A stretch of 29,035 nucleotides of DNA from Candidatus Auribacterota bacterium. Lineage in GTDB: Bacteria; Auribacterota; UBA6266. A program made the translations under genes and the position numbers. The notes beneath the pieces are model-generated. The model was not told the origin of the DNA. It searched no databases and worked only from the letters and a program-made list of their open reading frames with translations. Below are positions 10,449 to 19,868 of the stretch, piece by piece (position 1 is the first letter of the stretch; every line of letters begins with the position of its first letter). The stretch is from assembly GCA_023136205.1 (NCBI GenBank), contig JAGLRQ010000019.1, positions 1-29,035 of the forward strand, in the 5' to 3' direction.

Positions 10449-12692
10449 ATGTGTTTTTTAAAACGATTAATAATTTTAACTGTCTTTTCCTTTTTGATAG
10501 CCCCATTGTCTTCCGCCCAGGAAAACTTAATTCTGGATGCCGGATTTGAACAATCTCCTCATTCTTCCGGGGTAAACTGGAAGGATTGGGGGCCGGGAAC
10601 AAAAGATTTTGACAATACAGAGGAGGTTCATTCGGGAACTGAATCTTATAAACTAACGGTATCTGTTTCAACTTATATGTGGGCAAGTGATATTGCGTTA
10701 CAGGAAAATATAACAGACTTCCTGGTTGGAGACAGTTTTGAAGCAGAAGCCCATTTATTAATACCGGAATCTAATCCCCTTACTGAAGATATAGAAACCT
10801 ATTTAGAGGTTGTATTTTATGATGGGCAGGGTATAAACGCGGAAAACGAAGTCGGCAAGTTCCAATCTCAGAAATACGGCTATGGCCAGGCTCAGAGTCA
10901 GTGGGTAAAACTTGAAATAAGCAATGTTGTTCCCCTTGGGGCTCAGAATTGCAAACTTCAGCTCGTGGTTTTACATTTACCGGACGAGCAGGGGCAGACA
11001 GGTAACTATTCAGGGGTAGTATATTTTGATGATGTGAGTTTAATTAAAACAATATCAAAGAAGACCACGGCTGTTTCTTCTTCAGATGAAAATTTTAACT
11101 TAATGGCAGAGAAAACTGTAGACAACAATATTGCAACCCGCTGGGCATCCGCTCATACAAATAGCGAATGGATATATCTTGATTTAGGTTCACCCCGCGC
11201 CTTTGACACCGTTAAATTGAGCTGGGAGACAGCTTATGCTGCAAGCTATGAGATTCAAATTTCAAATGATGCTCAGAATTGGAGCACTATTTATACTGAA
11301 AATTCGGGTAACGGAGGTGAAGACGTAATTCACCCTGGAGAACAAACTGCCCGATATATCAAGATGAAAGGCCTTATCAGGGGTACAGAATGGGGTTATT
11401 CTCTCTGGGAATTTGAAATTTCCAAATCCGCGGCTTCTTCATCGGAGTCTGCCGGGTTAGAAGCTTATAGAGCCGCGGATGGTGATATGAATACTCGCTG
11501 GGCATCAGCATTTAGTGATAATGAATGGATATATATTGATTATATGAACTCCAGGGCGTTTGACACTATTGAGTTAAACTGGGAGTCCGCGTATGGCCGC
11601 CAGTATGAAATTCAAGTCTCAGATAATGGTATCAACTGGACAAATATTTATACTGAAACAAACAGTAATGGCGGTGTAGATATAATTAATGTCGATAAAC
11701 AAAGCGCCAGATTTGTCAGAATGAATGGCATTTCCAGGGCAACGCCTTATGGATATTCTCTCTGGGAATTCAAAACCATGATGCGGATGACAGCAGTTTC
11801 TTCCTCTGATGAAAATTTATATTTAACGGCTGATAAAGCTATGGATGGCAACTTTAATAGCCGCTGGTCATCAGCATTTACTGATAATGAATGGATCTAT
11901 ATTGATCTTAGTGCCCCCCGCAGTTTTGATACGGTTAAATTAACTTGGGAAACGGCTTACGGATTGGCTTATGAGATACAAATTTCAGATGATGCCCAAA
12001 ACTGGAATACAGTTTATACAGAAACTTCAGGTGATGGGGGCGAAGATGTCATTTTCCTTGGGACGCAGACCGCCCGATATGTCAAGATGCAGGGTATTCA
12101 AGGGGGCACGGAATGGGGCTATTCTCTCCGGGAATTTGAAGTGTTAGGAACAACCACTGTTTGCGGCTATGAGAAAAGAATTAACTGCGGAGGTGAAGTT
12201 TACACTGCCCGGAACGGTGATTTTTATGCCGCTGATCAACAATATTCAACTCAAAACGGCTGCGGATATGTTGACGGAAACTGGGCTAGTACTTCTGATT
12301 CCATAGAAGATACGGAAGATGATATTCTTTATCGGTCAGAACGCTACAATGTAGGCGAATATAAATTTGATGTTCCGGATGGAACTTACACGGTTACTTT
12401 AAAATTTGCTGAAACCTATTTTACAGGCGCGGGAAAAAGAGTATTTAGTGTCTGGATAGAGGGAGAGCAAGTTCTGCAGAATCTAGATATTTATGCTGCG
12501 GCAGGCCATGACACTGCTTTAGACAAAGAATTTACTGTAAAAATTTCAGATGGCCAATTGAACATTACCGCTCTTGCCGCAAGAGACTGTGCTAAATTTT
12601 CAGCTATATCAGTTGTCGGCGGGCGTGATGTAACACCTCCAAATTTGACAATAATATCACCGAATAACGGAGCAGTTATATATCAGGATTAA
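10449..12692 (+). CDS. Secreted multi-lectin protein: CBM4_9-like module, three F5/8 type C (discoidin/CBM32-like) domains, malectin domain. No catalytic domain is seen.
   Basis: AAGGAGAG RBS. Signal peptide MCFLKRLIILTVFSFLIAPLSSA/QE. NLILDAGFE...HSGTESYKL...VYFDDVSL resembles CBM4_9. Three repeats carry TRWAS...EWIY(L/I)DL...FDT(V/I)KL.WE.AY...YEIQ(I/V)S.D..NW...Y (discoidin). The C-terminus INCGG...YAADQQY...RSERYN...YKFDVPDGTYTVTLKFAETYF...KRVFSVWIEGE is malectin-like. Confidence 0.85.
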   Translation: MCFLKRLIILTVFSFLIAPLSSAQENLILDAGFEQSPHSSGVNWKDWGPGTKDFDNTEEVHSGTESYKLTVSVSTYMWASDIALQENITDFLVGDSFEAEAHLLIPESNPLTEDIETYLEVVFYDGQGINAENEVGKFQSQKYGYGQAQSQWVKLEISNVVPLGAQNCKLQLVVLHLPDEQGQTGNYSGVVYFDDVSLIKTISKKTTAVSSSDENFNLMAEKTVDNNIATRWASAHTNSEWIYLDLGSPRAFDTVKLSWETAYAASYEIQISNDAQNWSTIYTENSGNGGEDVIHPGEQTARYIKMKGLIRGTEWGYSLWEFEISKSAASSSESAGLEAYRAADGDMNTRWASAFSDNEWIYIDYMNSRAFDTIELNWESAYGRQYEIQVSDNGINWTNIYTETNSNGGVDIINVDKQSARFVRMNGISRATPYGYSLWEFKTMMRMTAVSSSDENLYLTADKAMDGNFNSRWSSAFTDNEWIYIDLSAPRSFDTVKLTWETAYGLAYEIQISDDAQNWNTVYTETSGDGGEDVIFLGTQTARYVKMQGIQGGTEWGYSLREFEVLGTTTVCGYEKRINCGGEVYTARNGDFYAADQQYSTQNGCGYVDGNWASTSDSIEDTEDDILYRSERYNVGEYKFDVPDGTYTVTLKFAETYFTGAGKRVFSVWIEGEQVLQNLDIYAAAGHDTALDKEFTVKISDGQLNITALAARDCAKFSAISVVGGRDVTPPNLTIISPNNGAVIYQD
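11064..12149 (+). repeat. Three tandem coding repeats of about 360 bp, each encoding one discoidin domain
   Basis: Repeat units are about 11064-11426, 11427-11786 and 11787-12149. Units 1 and 3 are visibly closer to each other (TTAVSSSDENFNL / MTAVSSSDENLYL; DAQNWSTIYTENSGNGGEDVI / DAQNWNTVYTETSGDGGEDVI) than either is to unit 2. Confidence 0.85.
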
Positions 12693-12705: not shown

Positions 12706-15700
12706 ATGAAATTATACATAAAAATCTTTCTATTTTTTATTTCGGTTTTCTTGATAAATGATTTTGTTTTAGCTGAAGAAGATAATACATATAGTTTGCT
12801 TCCCCAGAATGCGTATGGGGTATTGGATATTCATGGCGCCCCGATACCACCAAAAAATCCAAAAGATTTACTGCAGGTGGATGTTCCTCATGAAGATACT
12901 GTCCGTGTTAATCTTTCAACCGGCAAACTGACTGTGAAAACAACTGAGTTTGATGTGCCATGCAGGGGACACGATAAAGAGTTGGCTCTGAGTTTTAGCC
13001 GGACATATGGTACCGGAACAGTAACTGGTGAAAATTTATTAGGGGTCAGTTGGAAAACAAATCATGATGTTACCATGCATGTTTTTGCCAACTATGATCG
13101 TGAGACCGGTGAACCTGTCTACAGATTAATCAATATTTCCACCAATAAAGGCCATACCCAGTTCCAGTGCTTTGTTCATGACATAGATTACTATCAGCCT
13201 ATGGGAAGGTCCAGCAGGCAAACGAAACTATTTGAAGGTGAACCTGAACCTAAAAGGCTTGACGATCCTTACCCAATTACCTATGTATGGCGGACAAAAC
13301 ACGGCATGAAATATTATTTTGAGCCCTATTATATCTACCTTACTTCCGGGCAGGTTGATGTGGAATCTGTAGATTATAGATTAAAGAAGATGGAAGATAG
13401 GAACGGGAATACGCTGGAATACACTTACCTATGCCATGGAGGTAAACTTGGTGAGGCTGTGGAGGCAACACCTGTTACTAGAATTGATGATGGGACACCA
13501 GGTATTGATGTTACTGAGTTTGGGTCCAGCATTCTTCGTGAATTGAGGACTTTCTTTGCTGTTGACCTTGAGTATGTTTCTGAACAAGCAGCCGCAAAAT
13601 TCTTTGCAATAAGAAACAGGAGGCCTTCTAGGCTGACAGATGTAGCTACCGGAAGGTATATAGAGTTTACATATTATCCCAGTTTTAGTGTTGATGATAT
13701 AAAAAAAGGGTTACTGCAAACAGTAACCGATCCTGCAGGCAATGAATACAATTTTGATTATATGGAGGTTAGCCATCCAGTTGGAAGTCACCCGTACTTG
13801 TATACTGTTCAGAAACCCGGCTTATCTAATTCTGCAATGTACGCACGTTCTTATTTTGGTGACCTTTCAAGCATGACCGATCCCCTGAATAACACGATTA
13901 ATGCAAAATACGATGTTAGACTGAGAGTTTACCGCGTTACCTTATCCAATGGTACATACTTTGATTTGGATTATTTCGATATCAATTCTCCTCTAAATGT
14001 CCATGTAACATATAGTGACCGTCCCAATGTAAAATTGGTTTATAAATTTGATCATGAAGGCAGATTAAATGGCTTGGAGACATGGGAAAACGAGGTAAAG
14101 ATATGGTATGAGTGGTACTCCTGGGAGAATTCGCGAGGCCCTCAGTTTTTCACTAATCTTTTAAGCGCAGGTGAAAGCGGCTGCGGCTCGCCTTATTTGT
14201 GGACATATGAAGGTGATAGCGAGAACCCTGTAACACATTCCATACCCGGCAATAGGAAAAAGCTCTATACGTATAATGAATTTCATAAGGTAACTAAAGA
14301 AGAATTAACCAGATGGTCAACAGGAGAAGTTTTAAAAGTAACGGATTTTGTTTATGACGTTAACGGAAACCTTACCTCAAAAATCGAAGATTCCGGAGGC
14401 CCCAACGAAATAATAACAAATTATGCTTATGATGAATTTGGAAACAGGACAAGTGTTACGGATCCCAATGGAAATACAACAACATTTACTTATGATGATT
14501 GCGGCAATGTTTTAACATCTACGGATCCTGAGGGAAATATTACATCTTACACATATGATATAAACGGCAATAAATTATCTGAGGCCGATGCCCGAGGTAA
14601 CGTTACAGCTTACGAATATGATGCTTTAAACCGTCTTGAAAACATTACCTTTCCCGCGGAGGATGGTATTCTTGAGCCGCCTCTAAAAACATATGTATAC
14701 GATGATAACAGTGATGTTAAATCTATAACCGACGAAAATGGAAACACAACCGAATATCAGTATGACAGTAACACCCGGTTGTATAGAGAAATAGACCCTC
14801 TGGGTTATTTTGTGGAGTATGGATATGACAGTACTGGAAATGCCGTTCTTAAGAAGGACAAAAATGGTAAATCAATTTTATACGGCTATGACGCGTTAAA
14901 CAGAAAGGTAATCGAGGCAGATTGTCTCGGTGAAACCACTACATATTCCTATGGGGATCTTTTTACAAGATGTGGTTCGGCTATGTTCGAAGGTTCTTCG
15001 TTTAATCCAACAGCTATTACAGATAAAAGAGGAAATATTACTGAGTATCAATATAACAACCGTTACTGGCTGCAGTTTATCAGGTATCCGGGTATTGAAG
15101 GGTATGAAGAACATTTTGAATACGATGTTTTTGGGAATAAGACCCTATGGATAGATCCAAACGACCGGTTTTGGAGATATTATTATGACAACGTAAACCG
15201 TCTTGTAAAACAGACAGATCCTGTAAACTACGATATCCTTTATGGGTATGATAATAACGGCAATAAAACAAGCGAAACCGATAAGAGAGGAAACATAACA
15301 AATTTTGAGTATGATGGAAACAACAGGCTTAGGAAGGCAATCGACCCTTATTTTGAATATACTGAATATTTTTATGATGGAGTTGGGAACAAGATATCCG
15401 AGCGGGATAAAAGGGGAAACTATACTAATTTTACCTATGATAAACGCAATCGTTTAGAAGAAGTTATAACAGAACCTGAAACAGGTGTTACATACACAAA
15501 AACTTACGAATATGATGATAAAGGCAATAAAACCGCTGAAGTAGATGAAAACGGCAACAGGACTGAATATACCTATACGACGCGTGACGAACTCTGGACA
15601 CTAAAAGATGCTTATAATAACAGTATTTCATACTTGTATGATGCCAATGGAAATAAGGATTCCGAAACGGATAAGAAAGGAAATACTACGGCTTACTTAT

Positions 15701-15918
15701 ATACAAACCGCAATGAACTTTCAAGTGTTACAGATCCTCTGGCCAATTCAATAAACTACACTTATGATGAAAACGGAAATAAGCAAACTGATACAGACAA
15801 AAGAAATCTGACAACTAGCTTTGGCTATGACGAAAGAAACCTTCTTATTTCAGTAACAGACCATGAGGAGAACATCAGCTCTTTTACCTACGATGGAAAC
15901 AAACCCTCTTCTTCATGA
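12706..15918 (+). CDS. RHS/YD-repeat protein, N-terminal ORF (signal peptide plus first part of the shell). Probably the 5' part of one frameshifted gene.
   Basis: AAGGAG lies 7 nt upstream and the gap to the lectin gene is 13 nt. Signal peptide MKLYIKIFLFFISVFLINDFVLA/EE. RHS-type N-terminal strand VNLSTGKLTVKTTEFDVPCRG...LSFSRTYGTG. Many YD repeats follow (YAYDEFGNRTSVTDPNGNTTTFTYDDCGNVLTSTDPEGN...). Confidence 0.85.
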   Translation: MKLYIKIFLFFISVFLINDFVLAEEDNTYSLLPQNAYGVLDIHGAPIPPKNPKDLLQVDVPHEDTVRVNLSTGKLTVKTTEFDVPCRGHDKELALSFSRTYGTGTVTGENLLGVSWKTNHDVTMHVFANYDRETGEPVYRLINISTNKGHTQFQCFVHDIDYYQPMGRSSRQTKLFEGEPEPKRLDDPYPITYVWRTKHGMKYYFEPYYIYLTSGQVDVESVDYRLKKMEDRNGNTLEYTYLCHGGKLGEAVEATPVTRIDDGTPGIDVTEFGSSILRELRTFFAVDLEYVSEQAAAKFFAIRNRRPSRLTDVATGRYIEFTYYPSFSVDDIKKGLLQTVTDPAGNEYNFDYMEVSHPVGSHPYLYTVQKPGLSNSAMYARSYFGDLSSMTDPLNNTINAKYDVRLRVYRVTLSNGTYFDLDYFDINSPLNVHVTYSDRPNVKLVYKFDHEGRLNGLETWENEVKIWYEWYSWENSRGPQFFTNLLSAGESGCGSPYLWTYEGDSENPVTHSIPGNRKKLYTYNEFHKVTKEELTRWSTGEVLKVTDFVYDVNGNLTSKIEDSGGPNEIITNYAYDEFGNRTSVTDPNGNTTTFTYDDCGNVLTSTDPEGNITSYTYDINGNKLSEADARGNVTAYEYDALNRLENITFPAEDGILEPPLKTYVYDDNSDVKSITDENGNTTEYQYDSNTRLYREIDPLGYFVEYGYDSTGNAVLKKDKNGKSILYGYDALNRKVIEADCLGETTTYSYGDLFTRCGSAMFEGSSFNPTAITDKRGNITEYQYNNRYWLQFIRYPGIEGYEEHFEYDVFGNKTLWIDPNDRFWRYYYDNVNRLVKQTDPVNYDILYGYDNNGNKTSETDKRGNITNFEYDGNNRLRKAIDPYFEYTEYFYDGVGNKISERDKRGNYTNFTYDKRNRLEEVITEPETGVTYTKTYEYDDKGNKTAEVDENGNRTEYTYTTRDELWTLKDAYNNSISYLYDANGNKDSETDKKGNTTAYLYTNRNELSSVTDPLANSINYTYDENGNKQTDTDKRNLTTSFGYDERNLLISVTDHEENISSFTYDGNKPSSS

Positions 15919-18607
15919 AACAACTTATACTTACAATAGCTTAAACCGCCTTAAAACAAATACCGATGCCGAAAACAACGCAATAACCAACTATTATGAT
16001 GAAAACGGTAATCTTTCGGCGGTTATGGACGCGAATGGCAAGGTTACTTTTTATGAATACGACAAATTAAATCAGATTATAGAAGTTGCGGACCCTGAAA
16101 ATGGCAACAGTGGAGCGATAGAATACAGCTACGATGAAAATGGCAATAAAATTTCCATGAACGACCAGAGAACAGAAGACAATATTACAACTTATGAATA
16201 TGATGCTTTAAACCGTCTTATAAGCAATATAACTCCGATGTGGAAATTAACTACCTATGAATACGACGGAGTCGGCAACAGGATAATCCAGGAAGACGCG
16301 AATGGGGATACTATAACTTATACATATGATAAGCTGAATAGACTTGAACAAAAAACCTATATTGATTCTACCACTGTTACATATGTCTATGATGAAAATT
16401 CCAACCGCACGCGAATGGTTGACGGCACAGGAGTATATAACTATGAGTATGATGAGTTAAACCGCCTAATCTCGGAACAGTCACCCAGCGGGACAAAAAG
16501 TTACTCTTACGATGAAAATGGAAACCGCGATTTTCTTGGATATTCAGGCGGAAATATATTTTATGAATATGACACTTTAAATCGCCTGTTTAGAATAACA
16601 GATGCGGATGGAGAGATTACTCAGTATGAATACGATGATGCCGGAAGGGTGATAAAAACTGTTTATCCGAATGAAATTCAGACAGGTTATAGTTATTTTG
16701 ACAACAACTGGTTAAAAACATTAACTTCGCTTTTTAACGCTGTAAACATTTTTGATATTGAATACACTTATGACAATGTCGGCAACAAGATTTCAATGAT
16801 AGAAAAACATGTCAGCCCGGTTGCCCTTACTTCGTATGAATATGATAATTTATACCGGTTAACACAAGTAACTTATCCCGACAGTCTGATTGAAACCTAT
16901 ACCTATGACGCGGCAGGAAACCGTCTCACAAAAAGTAATGGCGCCTCCAATGAGGTGTATGTTTACAATGATGATAACGAATTAACAACAAGGCATGTTT
17001 TTGGCCAGGGAACAGGCGAGATAACAGTTACAGGAACAGTTAGAGATGACATAAAAGTTGACAGGGTGATAGTTAATGGTATTTCGGCGGTAATAGAAGG
17101 AGATAATTTTCATCAAACGATTTCTGTTACAAGCGGACAAAACACTATAACTGTAGCAGCTTATGACACATCGGGAAACAATGTCGCGAAATCACTGAGT
17201 ATTACCTATTTAGCATCGGGTGATGATATGTATAATTATGAGTACGACACTAATGGAAACACAACCAAAATAACAAAGAACAATGAAGATACTATCTTTA
17301 GTTATGATTATGAAAACAGAATGATTGGGGCAGTTACTCCTGCGGGAGCGCAAATAACATATGCTTATGACGGAGATAAGAGAAGGTATTCGAAAACTGT
17401 CGATGGAACAACTACTAAATTCCTCTATGACGGTATAAACATTCTTGCCGACCTTGATGGAAGCGGAGCAATTACAAAAGAATATACCCAGGGTCTTGGG
17501 ATAGATTCATTGATTAAAGCAACGGATGGAGAAAATCCCGAATACTATCATTCTGATGCTCTCGGTTCAACAAGGGTTATAACTAATGCAAATGGAAATA
17601 CAGTAAAAACCTACGATTACGACGCTTGGGGTAAAGTAACAAACGAAACCGGTTTATCAGAAAATGAATATACCTATACCGCAAGAAGAGTTGAAGATGA
17701 ATTAAACTTAATGTATTATAGAGCCAGGTTTTATGATACGGAAACAGGAAGATTTTTGCAGAAAGATCCTTTGACCGGCGGCCCTGATGATCCGAGGATT
17801 TGTTACAAAACTAATATTTACTCGTTCTTTGACAGAGTAATAACTGAAAGTATCAAATCCTTAGACCCGCATAATACTAATAGGTATGTTTACTGTAGGA
17901 ATAATCCGATTAATTACACTGATCCGTTGGGATTGGAAATAATTACCGGACTGGCAGTATATTTCACAGCGCTGACAACTTCTCCTGATTTTTATACAGA
18001 CTGTCAAATGCTTTCTCAGTCCTTAGCCGAAGGTGATTATGTAGGCGCTACCGGTGATTTGGTTGGGTTGGCAATACCTGCTGTGTCAAGCGCAATGACT
18101 CGACCGGCTGCAAAAAACGGCGCAAGGTTAGGCAAAAAAGCTTTGTCGGGTATTGCTGAAGGATTTTCAAAACTTGCGGAGAAGTTTGCGACTAAGTTTG
18201 GAGATGATGTTACAAAAGCAGTTACAAGAAATATTGATGAAGCTACTCAGGGAATTGCAAAAGGGAAGAAACTGCTAAATAAAGCAGATGATGTGGCGGG
18301 AAAAGGTCGAACGGTTATTGGTAAAATGGATGATTTGAACAAACCTGGTGCATTGAAAAAAGGGGAGAAATTATTAGATTTGCCAGATATGGGAAGCCCT
18401 AAAGCAAACTGGAAACAGAACGCTAGCAAATTACGTAAAACAATGAGAGAAGGAAAACCAATTAGAGATGCTTCAGTGACTAACAAAGGAAACTTGAGAA
18501 GCAATACAGGATTTTTACGGCCCGAACGAAATCTATTAGAAAATAAAGGGTGGAAATATAATAAACGACCAAGGTTATGGAAACCTCCTAGGAAAAAGTT
18601 AAAATGA
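15863..18607 (+). CDS. RHS/YD-repeat protein, C-terminal ORF: shell repeats, Ig-like insert, RHS repeat-associated core, DPLGL boundary and a variable C-terminal toxin domain
   Basis: YD repeats run throughout. The core region is YHSDALGSTRVITNANGNTVKTYDYDAWGK...YYRARFYDTETGRFLQKDPL...NRYVYCRNNPINYTDPLGL. The ATG at 15863 has no RBS and lies inside a repeat, so it is probably not an independent start. Confidence 0.85.
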   Translation: MRRTSALLPTMETNPLLHETTYTYNSLNRLKTNTDAENNAITNYYDENGNLSAVMDANGKVTFYEYDKLNQIIEVADPENGNSGAIEYSYDENGNKISMNDQRTEDNITTYEYDALNRLISNITPMWKLTTYEYDGVGNRIIQEDANGDTITYTYDKLNRLEQKTYIDSTTVTYVYDENSNRTRMVDGTGVYNYEYDELNRLISEQSPSGTKSYSYDENGNRDFLGYSGGNIFYEYDTLNRLFRITDADGEITQYEYDDAGRVIKTVYPNEIQTGYSYFDNNWLKTLTSLFNAVNIFDIEYTYDNVGNKISMIEKHVSPVALTSYEYDNLYRLTQVTYPDSLIETYTYDAAGNRLTKSNGASNEVYVYNDDNELTTRHVFGQGTGEITVTGTVRDDIKVDRVIVNGISAVIEGDNFHQTISVTSGQNTITVAAYDTSGNNVAKSLSITYLASGDDMYNYEYDTNGNTTKITKNNEDTIFSYDYENRMIGAVTPAGAQITYAYDGDKRRYSKTVDGTTTKFLYDGINILADLDGSGAITKEYTQGLGIDSLIKATDGENPEYYHSDALGSTRVITNANGNTVKTYDYDAWGKVTNETGLSENEYTYTARRVEDELNLMYYRARFYDTETGRFLQKDPLTGGPDDPRICYKTNIYSFFDRVITESIKSLDPHNTNRYVYCRNNPINYTDPLGLEIITGLAVYFTALTTSPDFYTDCQMLSQSLAEGDYVGATGDLVGLAIPAVSSAMTRPAAKNGARLGKKALSGIAEGFSKLAEKFATKFGDDVTKAVTRNIDEATQGIAKGKKLLNKADDVAGKGRTVIGKMDDLNKPGALKKGEKLLDLPDMGSPKANWKQNASKLRKTMREGKPIRDASVTNKGNLRSNTGFLRPERNLLENKGWKYNKRPRLWKPPRKKLK
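15895..15918 (+). other. Frame discontinuity inside the RHS gene (the +1 frame is needed to continue)
   Basis: Frame 1 reads FTYDGNKPSSS*, with the stop at 15916-15918. The next frame reads ...NPLLHETTYTYNSLNRL and continues the YD repeats. Deleting one base from the ggaaacaaaccc run (15895-15906) joins the two frames seamlessly. Confidence 0.8.
17936..18604 (+). other. RHS C-terminal variable domain (223 aa after DPLGL), the predicted toxin, family not recognised
   Basis: It starts directly after DPLGL (17921-17935). I see no HNH/GHH/AHH, deaminase (C/HxE...PCxxC), ART or Walker A motif. It contains GDYVGATGDLVGLAIP, which could be a pre-toxin TG-like segment. The tail KRPRLWKPPRKKLK is very basic. 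Confidence 0.6.
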
Positions 18608-19203
18608 ACAAAAGAACCGAACTTAATTTTGCGAAAGAAGTAATATCTACTTTCGATTTTTTGACGAAAGAATATAATTTTCGTTTAGTAGGAACAGATT
18701 GTTTATACGTAGTTAGATATGAATCTAATTTGGTTTTTATTAATATCTATCACGAAAAGATATCATATGAATTAGGATTTTCAATAGGATTATTAAGTGA
18801 TAAAGAAAAAAGAGGATATACTATTGATGAGTTGGTTAGGTTGAAGGATTTGGGAGCGGAAAAACAACCGATATTTTTTCAAGCCAGTACAAAAAAGGAT
18901 GTAAAACATTGTATTCAGGAATTATCTAAGCTTGTTAAACAAAATGGAGGCTTAGCTTTAAAAGAAGATCGTAGTGTATTTGTGCATCTTGATCGTATAA
19001 GAGAGGATTTGGGAAGCAAACAACAGAGAGAATATGAGCTAAGACAAGTTAGAAAAGAAGCACAAGAATTCTGGAAAAAGAAAACATATGATAGATTGAT
19101 AGAATTATATAGCTCTATTTTTGACGATTTAACTCAGTCAGAGATTAAAAAATTGATTTATGCTAGAAACCAGTTAAAAAAAATTGGGCTTAACAAATTG
19201 TAG
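18604..19203 (+). CDS. Candidate cognate immunity protein (199 aa, cytoplasmic, no recognised family)
   Basis: Its ATG overlaps the RHS stop (ATGA at 18604-18607). It sits immediately 3' of an RHS toxin domain. It has no signal peptide or TM segment. Its composition is markedly AT-rich. Confidence 0.6.
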   Translation: MNKRTELNFAKEVISTFDFLTKEYNFRLVGTDCLYVVRYESNLVFINIYHEKISYELGFSIGLLSDKEKRGYTIDELVRLKDLGAEKQPIFFQASTKKDVKHCIQELSKLVKQNGGLALKEDRSVFVHLDRIREDLGSKQQREYELRQVRKEAQEFWKKKTYDRLIELYSSIFDDLTQSEIKKLIYARNQLKKIGLNKL

Positions 19204-19229
19204 TGAAAAGGGAAAAGAGGGGAGAGATA

Positions 19230-19868
19230 ATGAAAGCATTGAAGATTACTGTATTTATTCTGGCTTTACTTGTTCTTGCGACACAGGTTGCTCGACATGT
19301 ATACGTGCGATATCTCGAACCAAGGACGTCGGTTTTGGATAAGTTTGAGGAAACTGAAACAAAGAAGGTAATTCAAAGGGCAACGACCCTTTCTGAGCTT
19401 GTAGAGGAATATGATCCTGCTAGGAAACGCGTTGATCAGCTTGATAAAGAGATGCAGATAGAATTGTCTAAAAAGAATAGCGATGATTATTATATGTTTG
19501 AAGAAAAGTGGAAAGAGGATTATAAGCAAGAATACCAACAGGAAGAAGAACTAAAGTCGGCAATTCAGGATTGGGAGGAAAAAAGCAAAGAAATCCGAGA
19601 GCTATACGTATTCTGGGCGTTCGGATTGTTCTTCTTTGCAATTGGCATATTTATGCTAAAGAAAGGTTTCAACTGGATTGGCATGGCATTTATTATTCCT
19701 GGTATTGTCGAGATGATTTGGTGGACAAGCCCCTCATTTCGTTTTGCAGGAAGCCCTCTTGAATTCGATCGACTGCTTAATAATAAGTTGGGGTTCACCA
19801 TTGTTACACTTGTCGTATTTATAACTGTGTGGTATTTTAGTGAATCAAAAAGAAAAAAGAATCTCTAA
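19230..19868 (+). CDS. Multi-pass membrane protein of unknown function with an acidic, coiled-coil-like segment
   Basis: The ATG at 19230 is preceded by AGAGGGGAG. The track start at 19203 is a GTG that overlaps the previous stop by one base. Hydrophobic segments: ITVFILALLVLATQV, LYVFWAFGLFFFAIGIFML, WIGMAFIIPGIVEMIWW, LGFTIVTLVVFITVWYF. Confidence 0.6.
   Translation: MKALKITVFILALLVLATQVARHVYVRYLEPRTSVLDKFEETETKKVIQRATTLSELVEEYDPARKRVDQLDKEMQIELSKKNSDDYYMFEEKWKEDYKQEYQQEEELKSAIQDWEEKSKEIRELYVFWAFGLFFFAIGIFMLKKGFNWIGMAFIIPGIVEMIWWTSPSFRFAGSPLEFDRLLNNKLGFTIVTLVVFITVWYFSESKRKKNL

Follow-up and report, generated by a model that had tools for sequence, protein, structure and literature searches.

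Does the tail of the RHS protein encoded in this locus act as a toxin, to which family does it belong, and how would it work? The window, meaning the whole stretch of DNA analysed (29,035 nucleotides, positions 1 to 29,035 of the forward strand of contig JAGLRQ010000019.1, assembly GCA_023136205.1), comes from a Candidatus Auribacterota bacterium (GTDB lineage Bacteria; Auribacterota; UBA6266). It carries the gene of an RHS/YD-repeat protein whose core ends at DPLGL and continues into a tail of 223 aa. The original prediction, made from the sequence and its open reading frames (ORFs), regarded this tail as the variable effector part of the protein and proposed a candidate new toxin family, with the gene at 18604-19203 as immunity partner. 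Our results indicate that a ~97-aa domain in the tail and the downstream gene very probably form a toxin–immunity pair. This module probably belongs to an uncurated family, and its toxin would be an enzyme that acts in the cytoplasm. Comparative genomics and models of moderate confidence are the basis of every functional statement made here.

The module and its carrier consist of the following features:

12706-15918, + strand: N-terminal part of the RHS/YD-repeat protein, 1070 aa; Sec-type signal peptide (MKLYIKIFLFFISVFLINDFVLA) at the start, premature end at the frameshift
15863-18607, + strand: C-terminal part of the RHS protein, 914-aa ORF; YD repeats, Glucodextran_B insert, RHS core, linker and toxin domain
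15889-15918 (about 15895-15905), + strand: 1-nt frameshift that splits the RHS gene; one A fewer in GGAAACAAACCC would give ...FTYDGNNPLLHETTYTYNSLNRL..., a perfect RHS repeat
17921-17935, + strand: DPLGL, end of the RHS core; sequence ...YTDPLGLEIITG..., which reads ...NPINYTDPLGL and then EIITG...
17936-18298, + strand: linker of ~121 aa, poorly conserved, not PT-TG
18299-18589, + strand: predicted toxin domain of ~97 aa, conserved in the family alignment
18604-19203, + strand: putative cognate immunity gene (199 aa), with its start codon in an ATGA overlap with the toxin stop

The tail of the RHS protein contains a conserved domain

The 914-aa ORF ends with 223 codons after DPLGL (17936-18604, stop codon at 18605-18607), which confirms the extent first given to the effector part. 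The tail contains no His and one Cys. Regular-expression searches of the tail found no HExxH, P-loop, CxxC, [HC]AE or HH-type motif, and the tail had no significant match in Pfam, NCBIfam, PADLOC, PHROGs or the PDB sequences. The curated toxin families (Pfam Tox- and Ntox, HNH, deaminase, ADP-ribosyltransferase (ART), REase and others, NCBIfam and PADLOC) likewise gave no significant hidden Markov model (HMM) match. The absence of a known toxin motif, noted from the letters alone, was thus borne out by both the motif searches and the library scans.

When the tail was searched against 5.8 billion proteins, 60 homologues were obtained with E values from 1e-10 to 1e-32, well past what chance would give. 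Nearly all of them covered 42-50% of the query, and the shared region reached the C-terminus in every one of the 60. BLAST mapping and the alignment of these homologues placed the conserved block at tail residues ~122-218 (18299-18589 of the window). Because the block spans only these residues, the linker before it is ~120 aa long and not ~60 aa. The first ~60 aa had been considered a possible PT-TG-like linker, and this idea has to be given up: PT-TG was matched neither by the window tail (E<=1) nor by the window linker together with five relatives (E<=5). In the hydropathy profile of the linker, two Gly-rich hydrophobic segments (tail aa 1-17 and 35-56) precede a helical stretch that is rich in Lys and Ala. 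A DPxG[LW] junction was present in 56 of 86 long relatives, and in these 56 the median distance from junction to domain was 109 aa, so the length of the window linker is typical.

Two further observations concern the linker. The best Pfam match of the tail was SseC, which fell on the linker with E=0.0025 and whose score of 17.9 bits is under the cut-off of 30.2; it was rejected as compositional (amphipathic and hydrophobic helices). Several relatives (L073, P0164, P0030 and P0091, where L denotes loci and P proteins of our collection) have in common the linker motif ...D..GF.GYD.YR.L.DN......N....L..LGGDL.GLA.PG.TG.G, which no Pfam model matches. The window retains ...GDLVGLAIPAVSS at 17936-18100 without the TG, and its linker ends in ...PAVSS, compared with ...PG.TG.G in some relatives. 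The shared motif may be an unmodelled pre-toxin or translocation element.

The family of this domain is large. When 1.84 billion cluster representatives were searched exhaustively with a profile, 1070 of them (clusters at 50% identity) matched at E<=1e-3, including 849 at E<=1e-10. In the best 150 of the 1070 matches, the domain always lay at the C-terminus. Loci were then collected with a trimmed alignment of eight sequences as query and one genome per species; 98 loci were confirmed, and 80 of them were analysed. The analysed loci span at least 12 phyla: they come from Firmicutes, Myxococcota, Elusimicrobia, Acidobacteriota, several classes of Proteobacteria, Planctomycetota, Gemmatimonadota, Actinomycetota, Deinococcota, Chloroflexota, Armatimonadota, Verrucomicrobiota, Bacteroidota and Campylobacterota. 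Most of the hosts are uncultured environmental bacteria; among the cultured ones are Cellulomonas composti, Photobacterium halotolerans, Dyella subtropica, Sphingomonas sp. and Desulfosporosinus sp. No family match was found by tblastn in plasmid and phage collections. One member (P0009) lies on a 1.2-kb contig of a metagenome-assembled genome labelled Nitrososphaera sp. (archaeal), which may reflect either mis-binning or a real archaeal occurrence.

The motifs of the domain are VIGK..DL..GE..LP..GSPKANWxQN..LR..M..GxPIRDAS..NTGFLRAERNLL..GW.Y..W.PP, and the motif NTGFLRxERNLL lies between PIRDAS and GW.Y. Residues are numbered so that residue 1 is tail residue 116. The invariant residues, with the window positions of their codons, are W44 (18410), N47 (18419), R52 (18434), D63 (18467), E82 (18524), R83 (18527) and W91 (18551). 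A divergent second subfamily (GGLNLFKWG...PI[YF]DSY...FLNAER) narrows the universally conserved set; across both subfamilies the invariant residues are W44, N47, L51, R52, I61, D63, F78, E82, R83, L86, G90 and W91. G14, G28, G38, N43, M55, P60, G70 and L79 are kept in at least 90% of the sequences. The mean column identity of the alignment is 58%. The domain is basic, with a median isoelectric point of 9.8 compared with 6.8 for the immunity protein.

The downstream gene is the putative immunity partner

The gene at 18604-19203 encodes a protein with neither a signal peptide nor a transmembrane segment. In almost all of the 80 loci, which are independent of one another, the ORF directly downstream of the domain encodes 180-230 aa. 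This ORF was homologous over its full length to the window protein in 77 of the 80 loci by phmmer, and in 79 of the 80 when a profile of the immunity family, assembled from the ORFs of the loci, was used; the exception was L083. Overlapping stop and start codons of the two genes were frequent among the loci. The proposal that this gene is the immunity partner therefore gained strong ground.

The immunity family diverges much faster than the toxin domain, and its members are 21-39% identical to the window protein. F17, E56, A156, L176, E180 and A187 are near-invariant. A word-indexed search with the window immunity protein returned near-identical copies only, and the family had no match in Pfam or in the PDB, including by profile search. 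A related Auribacterota strain (P0185) has an immunity gene with 89% identity. At two loci (L027:4198-4944 and L052:4102-4915) the immunity homologue is broken into two adjacent ORFs, owing to frameshifts or decay.

Carriers and cassette shuffling

The domain is attached to very different carriers. Long carriers are of the RHS/YD type, and most of them have a Sec signal peptide; two combine SpvB, TcdB_toxin_midN and RHS, which is the TcB/TcC architecture, and three contain PT-HINT (P0087, P0096 and P0117). Many other carriers are proteins of 150-215 aa in which a short spacer joins a signal peptide to the domain, and orphan carriers have 80-130 aa. No PAAR, VgrG, LXG, WXG or filamentous-haemagglutinin carrier was seen. 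Shuffling between delivery modules, which the original prediction had named as the hallmark to look for, was thus found on RHS, TcB/TcC-like, PT-HINT and signal-peptide-only carriers: the C-terminal domain has recombined among different N-terminal carriers, as is characteristic of RHS polymorphic toxins.

Judging by their architecture, the short members with a signal peptide would be stand-alone secreted toxins that dispense with the RHS shell. Five of them (P0010, P0024, P0026, P0038 and P0051) have ~200 aa with a signal peptide, a spacer ending in ...APFGEI and the domain. The signal of P0010 holds an RR motif (SNRRATIP) and might be a twin-arginine translocation (Tat) signal.

Cassettes also occur in arrays. 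A short Firmicutes contig (L005:3-3192) carries two tandem toxin–immunity cassettes as an orphan array. On a 1-Mb contig (L085:1-16645, GCA_964269015.1), a 1762-aa protein ending in the domain is followed by the immunity gene, and a second copy of the cassette, with integrase and primase genes on its flanks, lies behind a PT-HINT fragment; the duplication includes a helix-turn-helix–primase–integrase block, and a known Tox-REase-5/Imm52 cassette lies ~7 kb downstream. This arrangement suggests that an integrative element drives the exchange of cassettes. A recombining C-terminal cassette, an obligately linked downstream gene and known toxin cassettes in the same loci together amount to the genomic definition of a polymorphic toxin–immunity pair, and it is on this basis that we assign the two genes to such a pair with high confidence.

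The split RHS gene and neighbouring genes

In the window the RHS gene is represented by two overlapping ORFs on the + strand, 12706-15918 (1070 aa) and 15863-18607 (914 aa). TEN_YD-shell was matched on both. The 1070-aa product also matched RHS_repeat, and the 914-aa ORF matched it with E=2.4e-51 in 11 stretches. PF03527 (RHS) was found at aa 561-595 of the 914-aa ORF with E=4.5e-5, which is under its gathering score. Characterised RHS proteins undergo autoproteolysis at a DPLGL-type site. An Ig-like Glucodextran_B domain (Glucodextranase domain B, E=1.1e-9) lies inside the RHS repeats, at aa 387-448 of the 914-aa ORF (~17021-17206).

The toxin gene is therefore not a single uninterrupted ORF in the window, the two halves being offset by 1 nt. 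If the locus were a decaying remnant, the frameshift would part the signal peptide and the N-terminal shell from the cargo, nothing would be delivered, and only the immunity gene would be useful. Two other assemblies of the organism (L001 and L003) carry identical split gene calls, which fits such decay, but these assemblies may come from one shared sample and hence may not be independent. Moreover, the shift sits in an A-rich run (AAACAAACCC), where assembly and sequencing errors are common, and no further stop codon occurs across the 1070 and 914 codons of the two halves. Both the toxin ORF and the immunity ORF are intact, and their translation is coupled. We therefore regard decay of the locus in this genome as possible but unlikely; the frameshift could be a sequencing error.

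Two further genes adjoin the module:

10449-12692, + strand: secreted protein of 747 aa with three F5/8 type C (discoidin) domains and malectin; ends 13 nt upstream of the RHS gene
19203-19868, + strand: predicted membrane/coiled-coil protein of 221 aa; abuts the immunity gene, no Pfam family

The 747-aa protein may bind carbohydrates and serve the Sec-exported RHS toxin as an accessory or targeting factor, and its membership in the module is uncertain. The gene at 19203-19868 was considered as a conserved component of the module and rejected: its tblastn matches were confined to its own lineage (L001-L004), with none at the 80 other loci. The G+C content of the window is lowest at 18001-19500 (0.357, compared with 0.39-0.43 in the flanking housekeeping genes priA, tgt, yajC and secDF), as would be expected if the cassette were variable or acquired.

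Predicted structure and relation to known families

Two AlphaFold2 models of the domain were made, one from 50 sequences and one from 38 sequences that took in both subfamilies. Their confidence was moderate (pLDDT 75.3 and 79.1, pTM 0.64 and 0.68), and the order of secondary structure was identical: strand 10-13, short helix 16-19, strand 29-31, helix 40-57, strand 61-63, a small hairpin, helix 79-88, and strands 92-94 and 99-101. The last ~95 aa had been described as a small alpha/beta domain with conserved D/N/R/E positions, and both the alignment and the models agree with this description. In the predicted topology the conserved polar residues are located at strand ends and helix starts. 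Active sites of alpha/beta enzymes are commonly found at such places.

Foldseek searches with both models against the PDB (twice) and BFVD gave no significant neighbour (best E 0.6-1.6, TM<=0.42). The weak, non-significant neighbours were three-layer alpha/beta proteins, for example PTS EIIA-Man, GT-B Rossmann domains, phosphatases and arginase. In addition, 50 family members had no consistent Pfam match at E<=1, and the toxin family profile found nothing among the PDB sequences even at E<=10. The HMM scans and the structure searches thus both support the earlier statement that no recognised toxin family is present.

Several known identities were considered and rejected. Toprim nucleases carry hhVEGxxD and DxD motifs, with a conserved Glu after strand 1 and the DxD after strand 3. 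The VIGKxxD ... DAS motifs could be read in this way, but the equivalent positions are V-I-G-K (Ile; Phe or Lys in subfamily 2) and D-A-S or D-S-Y; both the catalytic Glu and the second Asp are missing, and no Toprim Pfam match was obtained. A PD-(D/E)xK nuclease lacks support in that no conserved (D/E)xK follows D63, and GIY-YIG in that there is no conserved Tyr. The R-S-E pattern of ARTs was ruled out by size and secondary structure. Tox1-24 of Pandoomain, weighed by their description, are specific to W10XG proteins of Bacillales. The nine families PT1-PT9 of Nachmias et al. do not fit either: PT1 and PT7 differ in their catalytic residues and PIM, and PT2-PT6, PT8 and PT9 in taxonomy, fold prediction or immunity partner.

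Among the families in the toxin table of Zhang et al. (2012, PMC3482391), only Ntox36 resembles the present domain, the comparison being one of descriptions. As that table presents it, Ntox36 has Gloeobacter violaceus gll0213 (gi 37519782) as type member, no conserved His, a conserved N-terminal Asn, and the motifs N, [RY] and [DE]; it is associated with the type II and type V secretion systems (T2SS/T5SS), HINT, RHS and FilH. It is predicted there to be a metal-independent ribonuclease (RNase) that does without His and has the BECR fold (an N-terminal helix and then a four-strand meander), and the entry lists no immunity protein (PMC3482391). None of the other papers searched mentions Ntox36.

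The present family could thus be Ntox36, named in 2012 and never entered into Pfam or any experiment. The present family also has no conserved His, its N47 is invariant and its N43 is nearly so (at least 90% of sequences). Position 62 holds R or Y/F, and E or D is found at position 29, although the mapping of these positions onto the Ntox36 motifs is ambiguous. Carriers with HINT, RHS and signal peptides are present, and members occur in Elusimicrobia, Acidobacteria, Actinobacteria, Firmicutes and Proteobacteria; the phyla resemble those of Ntox36, which also include Elusimicrobia. However, three weak positions poorly describe a family with long near-invariant motifs (NW..N, LR, PI.D, FL.AER and GW). 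No cyanobacterial locus and no FilH or T5SS carrier was found among the 80 loci and about 220 proteins, and the missing immunity protein of the Ntox36 entry contrasts with linkage in 79 of 80 loci here. The predicted order (strand-strand-helix-strand-(hairpin)-helix-strand-strand, from models of moderate confidence) looks unlike BECR, and no BECR protein was among the Foldseek matches. On these grounds we consider the identity with Ntox36 unlikely.

What remains of the candidate new toxin family is therefore qualified. The domain has no curated match, and this part stands; the word new can only mean uncurated, not rare, as the family is very large, and the family may be equal to Ntox36. The domain comes from a large and widespread family with no match to a curated family or a solved structure, and together with its partner it is very probably a new toxin–immunity pair.

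Proposed function

We propose the following mechanism for the module. Sec would export the RHS shell, and autoproteolysis at DPLGL would free the tail. The hydrophobic linker may aid the passage of the effector across the target membrane, and the effector would then work as an enzyme in the target cytoplasm; the cytoplasm is suggested as the site of action because the immunity protein is cytoplasmic. N43/N47, R52, D63, E82 and R83, plus W44 and W91, would form the active site. The producer would be protected by 1:1 binding of the immunity protein, in which Glu56 and Glu180 are candidates to plug the Arg-rich site.

For the chemistry we tentatively suggest, with low confidence, His-independent cleavage of nucleic acid. 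Phosphodiester chemistry on nucleic acid is favoured because the domain is basic and its invariant set includes Asp, Glu, two Arg and Asn and lacks His, Cys and Ser. The enzyme may be a metal-independent RNase with a Glu or Asp base and two Arg that stabilise the transition state, or else a Mg2+-dependent nuclease that uses D63, E82 and N47. As some carriers are of Tc type, the target may be one that many kinds of cell share. Nucleases dominate among polymorphic-toxin tails in the survey of Zhang et al. (PMC3482391).

The same residues could be read differently, as those of an enzyme that consumes nucleotides or NAD(P)+ and is built on a minimal Rossmann-like beta-alpha-beta unit. In the models, strand 29-31, a loop with G38, helix 40-57 and strand 61-63, which ends in the invariant D63, follow one another in this way; the Gly-rich loop (G38-S-P-K) would bind phosphate, Asp63 the ribose hydroxyls, and Glu82 would be catalytic. 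The analogy is with general features of the Rossmann fold. The weak Foldseek neighbours all have three-layer alpha/beta folds that handle nucleotides or phosphate, and an invariant Glu with two Arg and Trp would suit an NADase. We nevertheless hold this alternative, including its assignment of residues, to be improbable. All the structural matches are non-significant (TM<=0.42), the domain is much smaller than the NADase toxins (TIR, Tse6/TNT and ADP-ribosyl cyclases), and Pfam TIR, ART and ARC matched none of the 50 family members. The analogy also draws on the order of secondary-structure elements along the chain.

A non-enzymatic toxin that binds and blocks an essential, highly conserved machine of the cytoplasm, such as a component of the ribosome or of replication, with the invariant residues as its binding surface, would agree with a conservation that is unusually high for a toxin domain (58% mean column identity across phyla, against 21-39% identity for the immunity protein) and with the lack of a catalytic signature or fold match, but it is the least probable of all, as conserved Asp, Glu, two Arg and two Asn are typical of active sites and injected polymorphic toxins, delivered in few molecules, are overwhelmingly enzymes (PMC3482391).

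Thus, we still prefer an enzymatic toxin that acts in the cytoplasm. It may even embody a new fold and/or a new catalytic solution, namely an enzyme that relies on Asp, Glu, Arg and Asn without His on a minimal alpha/beta scaffold, with a new ~200-aa immunity partner. The cassette would then be among the most widespread polymorphic-toxin cassettes lacking a curated model, a structure or an experiment, and its activity could lie outside the nuclease, NADase and ADP-ribosyltransferase repertoire. We regard this as an attractive possibility rather than a likely one.

New enzyme chemistries and tools, among them DddA base editors, (p)ppApp synthetases and new deoxyribonuclease (DNase) folds, have come repeatedly from polymorphic-toxin tails. 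Several properties commend the present family for study: it is abundant, with 1070 clusters in at least 12 phyla, and its domain is short and highly conserved and hence tractable. With a defined immunity partner, work on toxicity, neutralisation and co-crystallisation is straightforward. A profile built from the present alignments would annotate thousands of "hypothetical" genes and flag orphan immunity genes in metagenomes.

Comparison with known systems

RelE and colicin E5 are RNase toxins independent of both His and metal, and the barnase-type RNases use Glu plus Arg. Like these toxins, the present domain is small (~100 aa) and basic and, by inference, acts in the cytoplasm. Its conserved Arg and acidic residues could, by analogy, serve as transition-state stabiliser and general base. 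However, it has no sequence or Foldseek similarity to them, and its predicted fold differs: the main helix is preceded by two strands, and another conserved helix lies between strands.

PT1 and PT7 are DNase domains of novel fold with PIM immunity proteins, which were found through shuffling and synteny (Nachmias et al., bioRxiv 10.1101/2021.10.19.465003). They have in common with the present family a short unannotated C-terminal domain and an adjacent immunity gene. PT1 and PT7 need a catalytic His (H44/H48 and H47/D37, respectively), and their PIMs have 117-122 aa (bioRxiv 10.1101/2021.10.19.465003), whereas the present family has no conserved His and an immunity protein of ~200 aa.

The closest comparison is with the RHS/YD systems, such as the WapA-like RHS proteins exported by Sec and the cocoon proteins TcB/TcC. 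The window shares with them the YD shell, the core ended by DPxGL, the variable effector and the downstream immunity gene, and orphan cassettes are also found in relatives of the locus. It differs in that its effector and immunity families lie outside the curated ones and its gene is frameshifted; it carries no PAAR, VgrG or other injection marker, and export seems to occur by the Sec signal peptide. The architecture is that of a standard RHS polymorphic toxin. The family is therefore new at least in the sense of being uncurated and uncharacterised, and the kind of system to which it belongs is well known.

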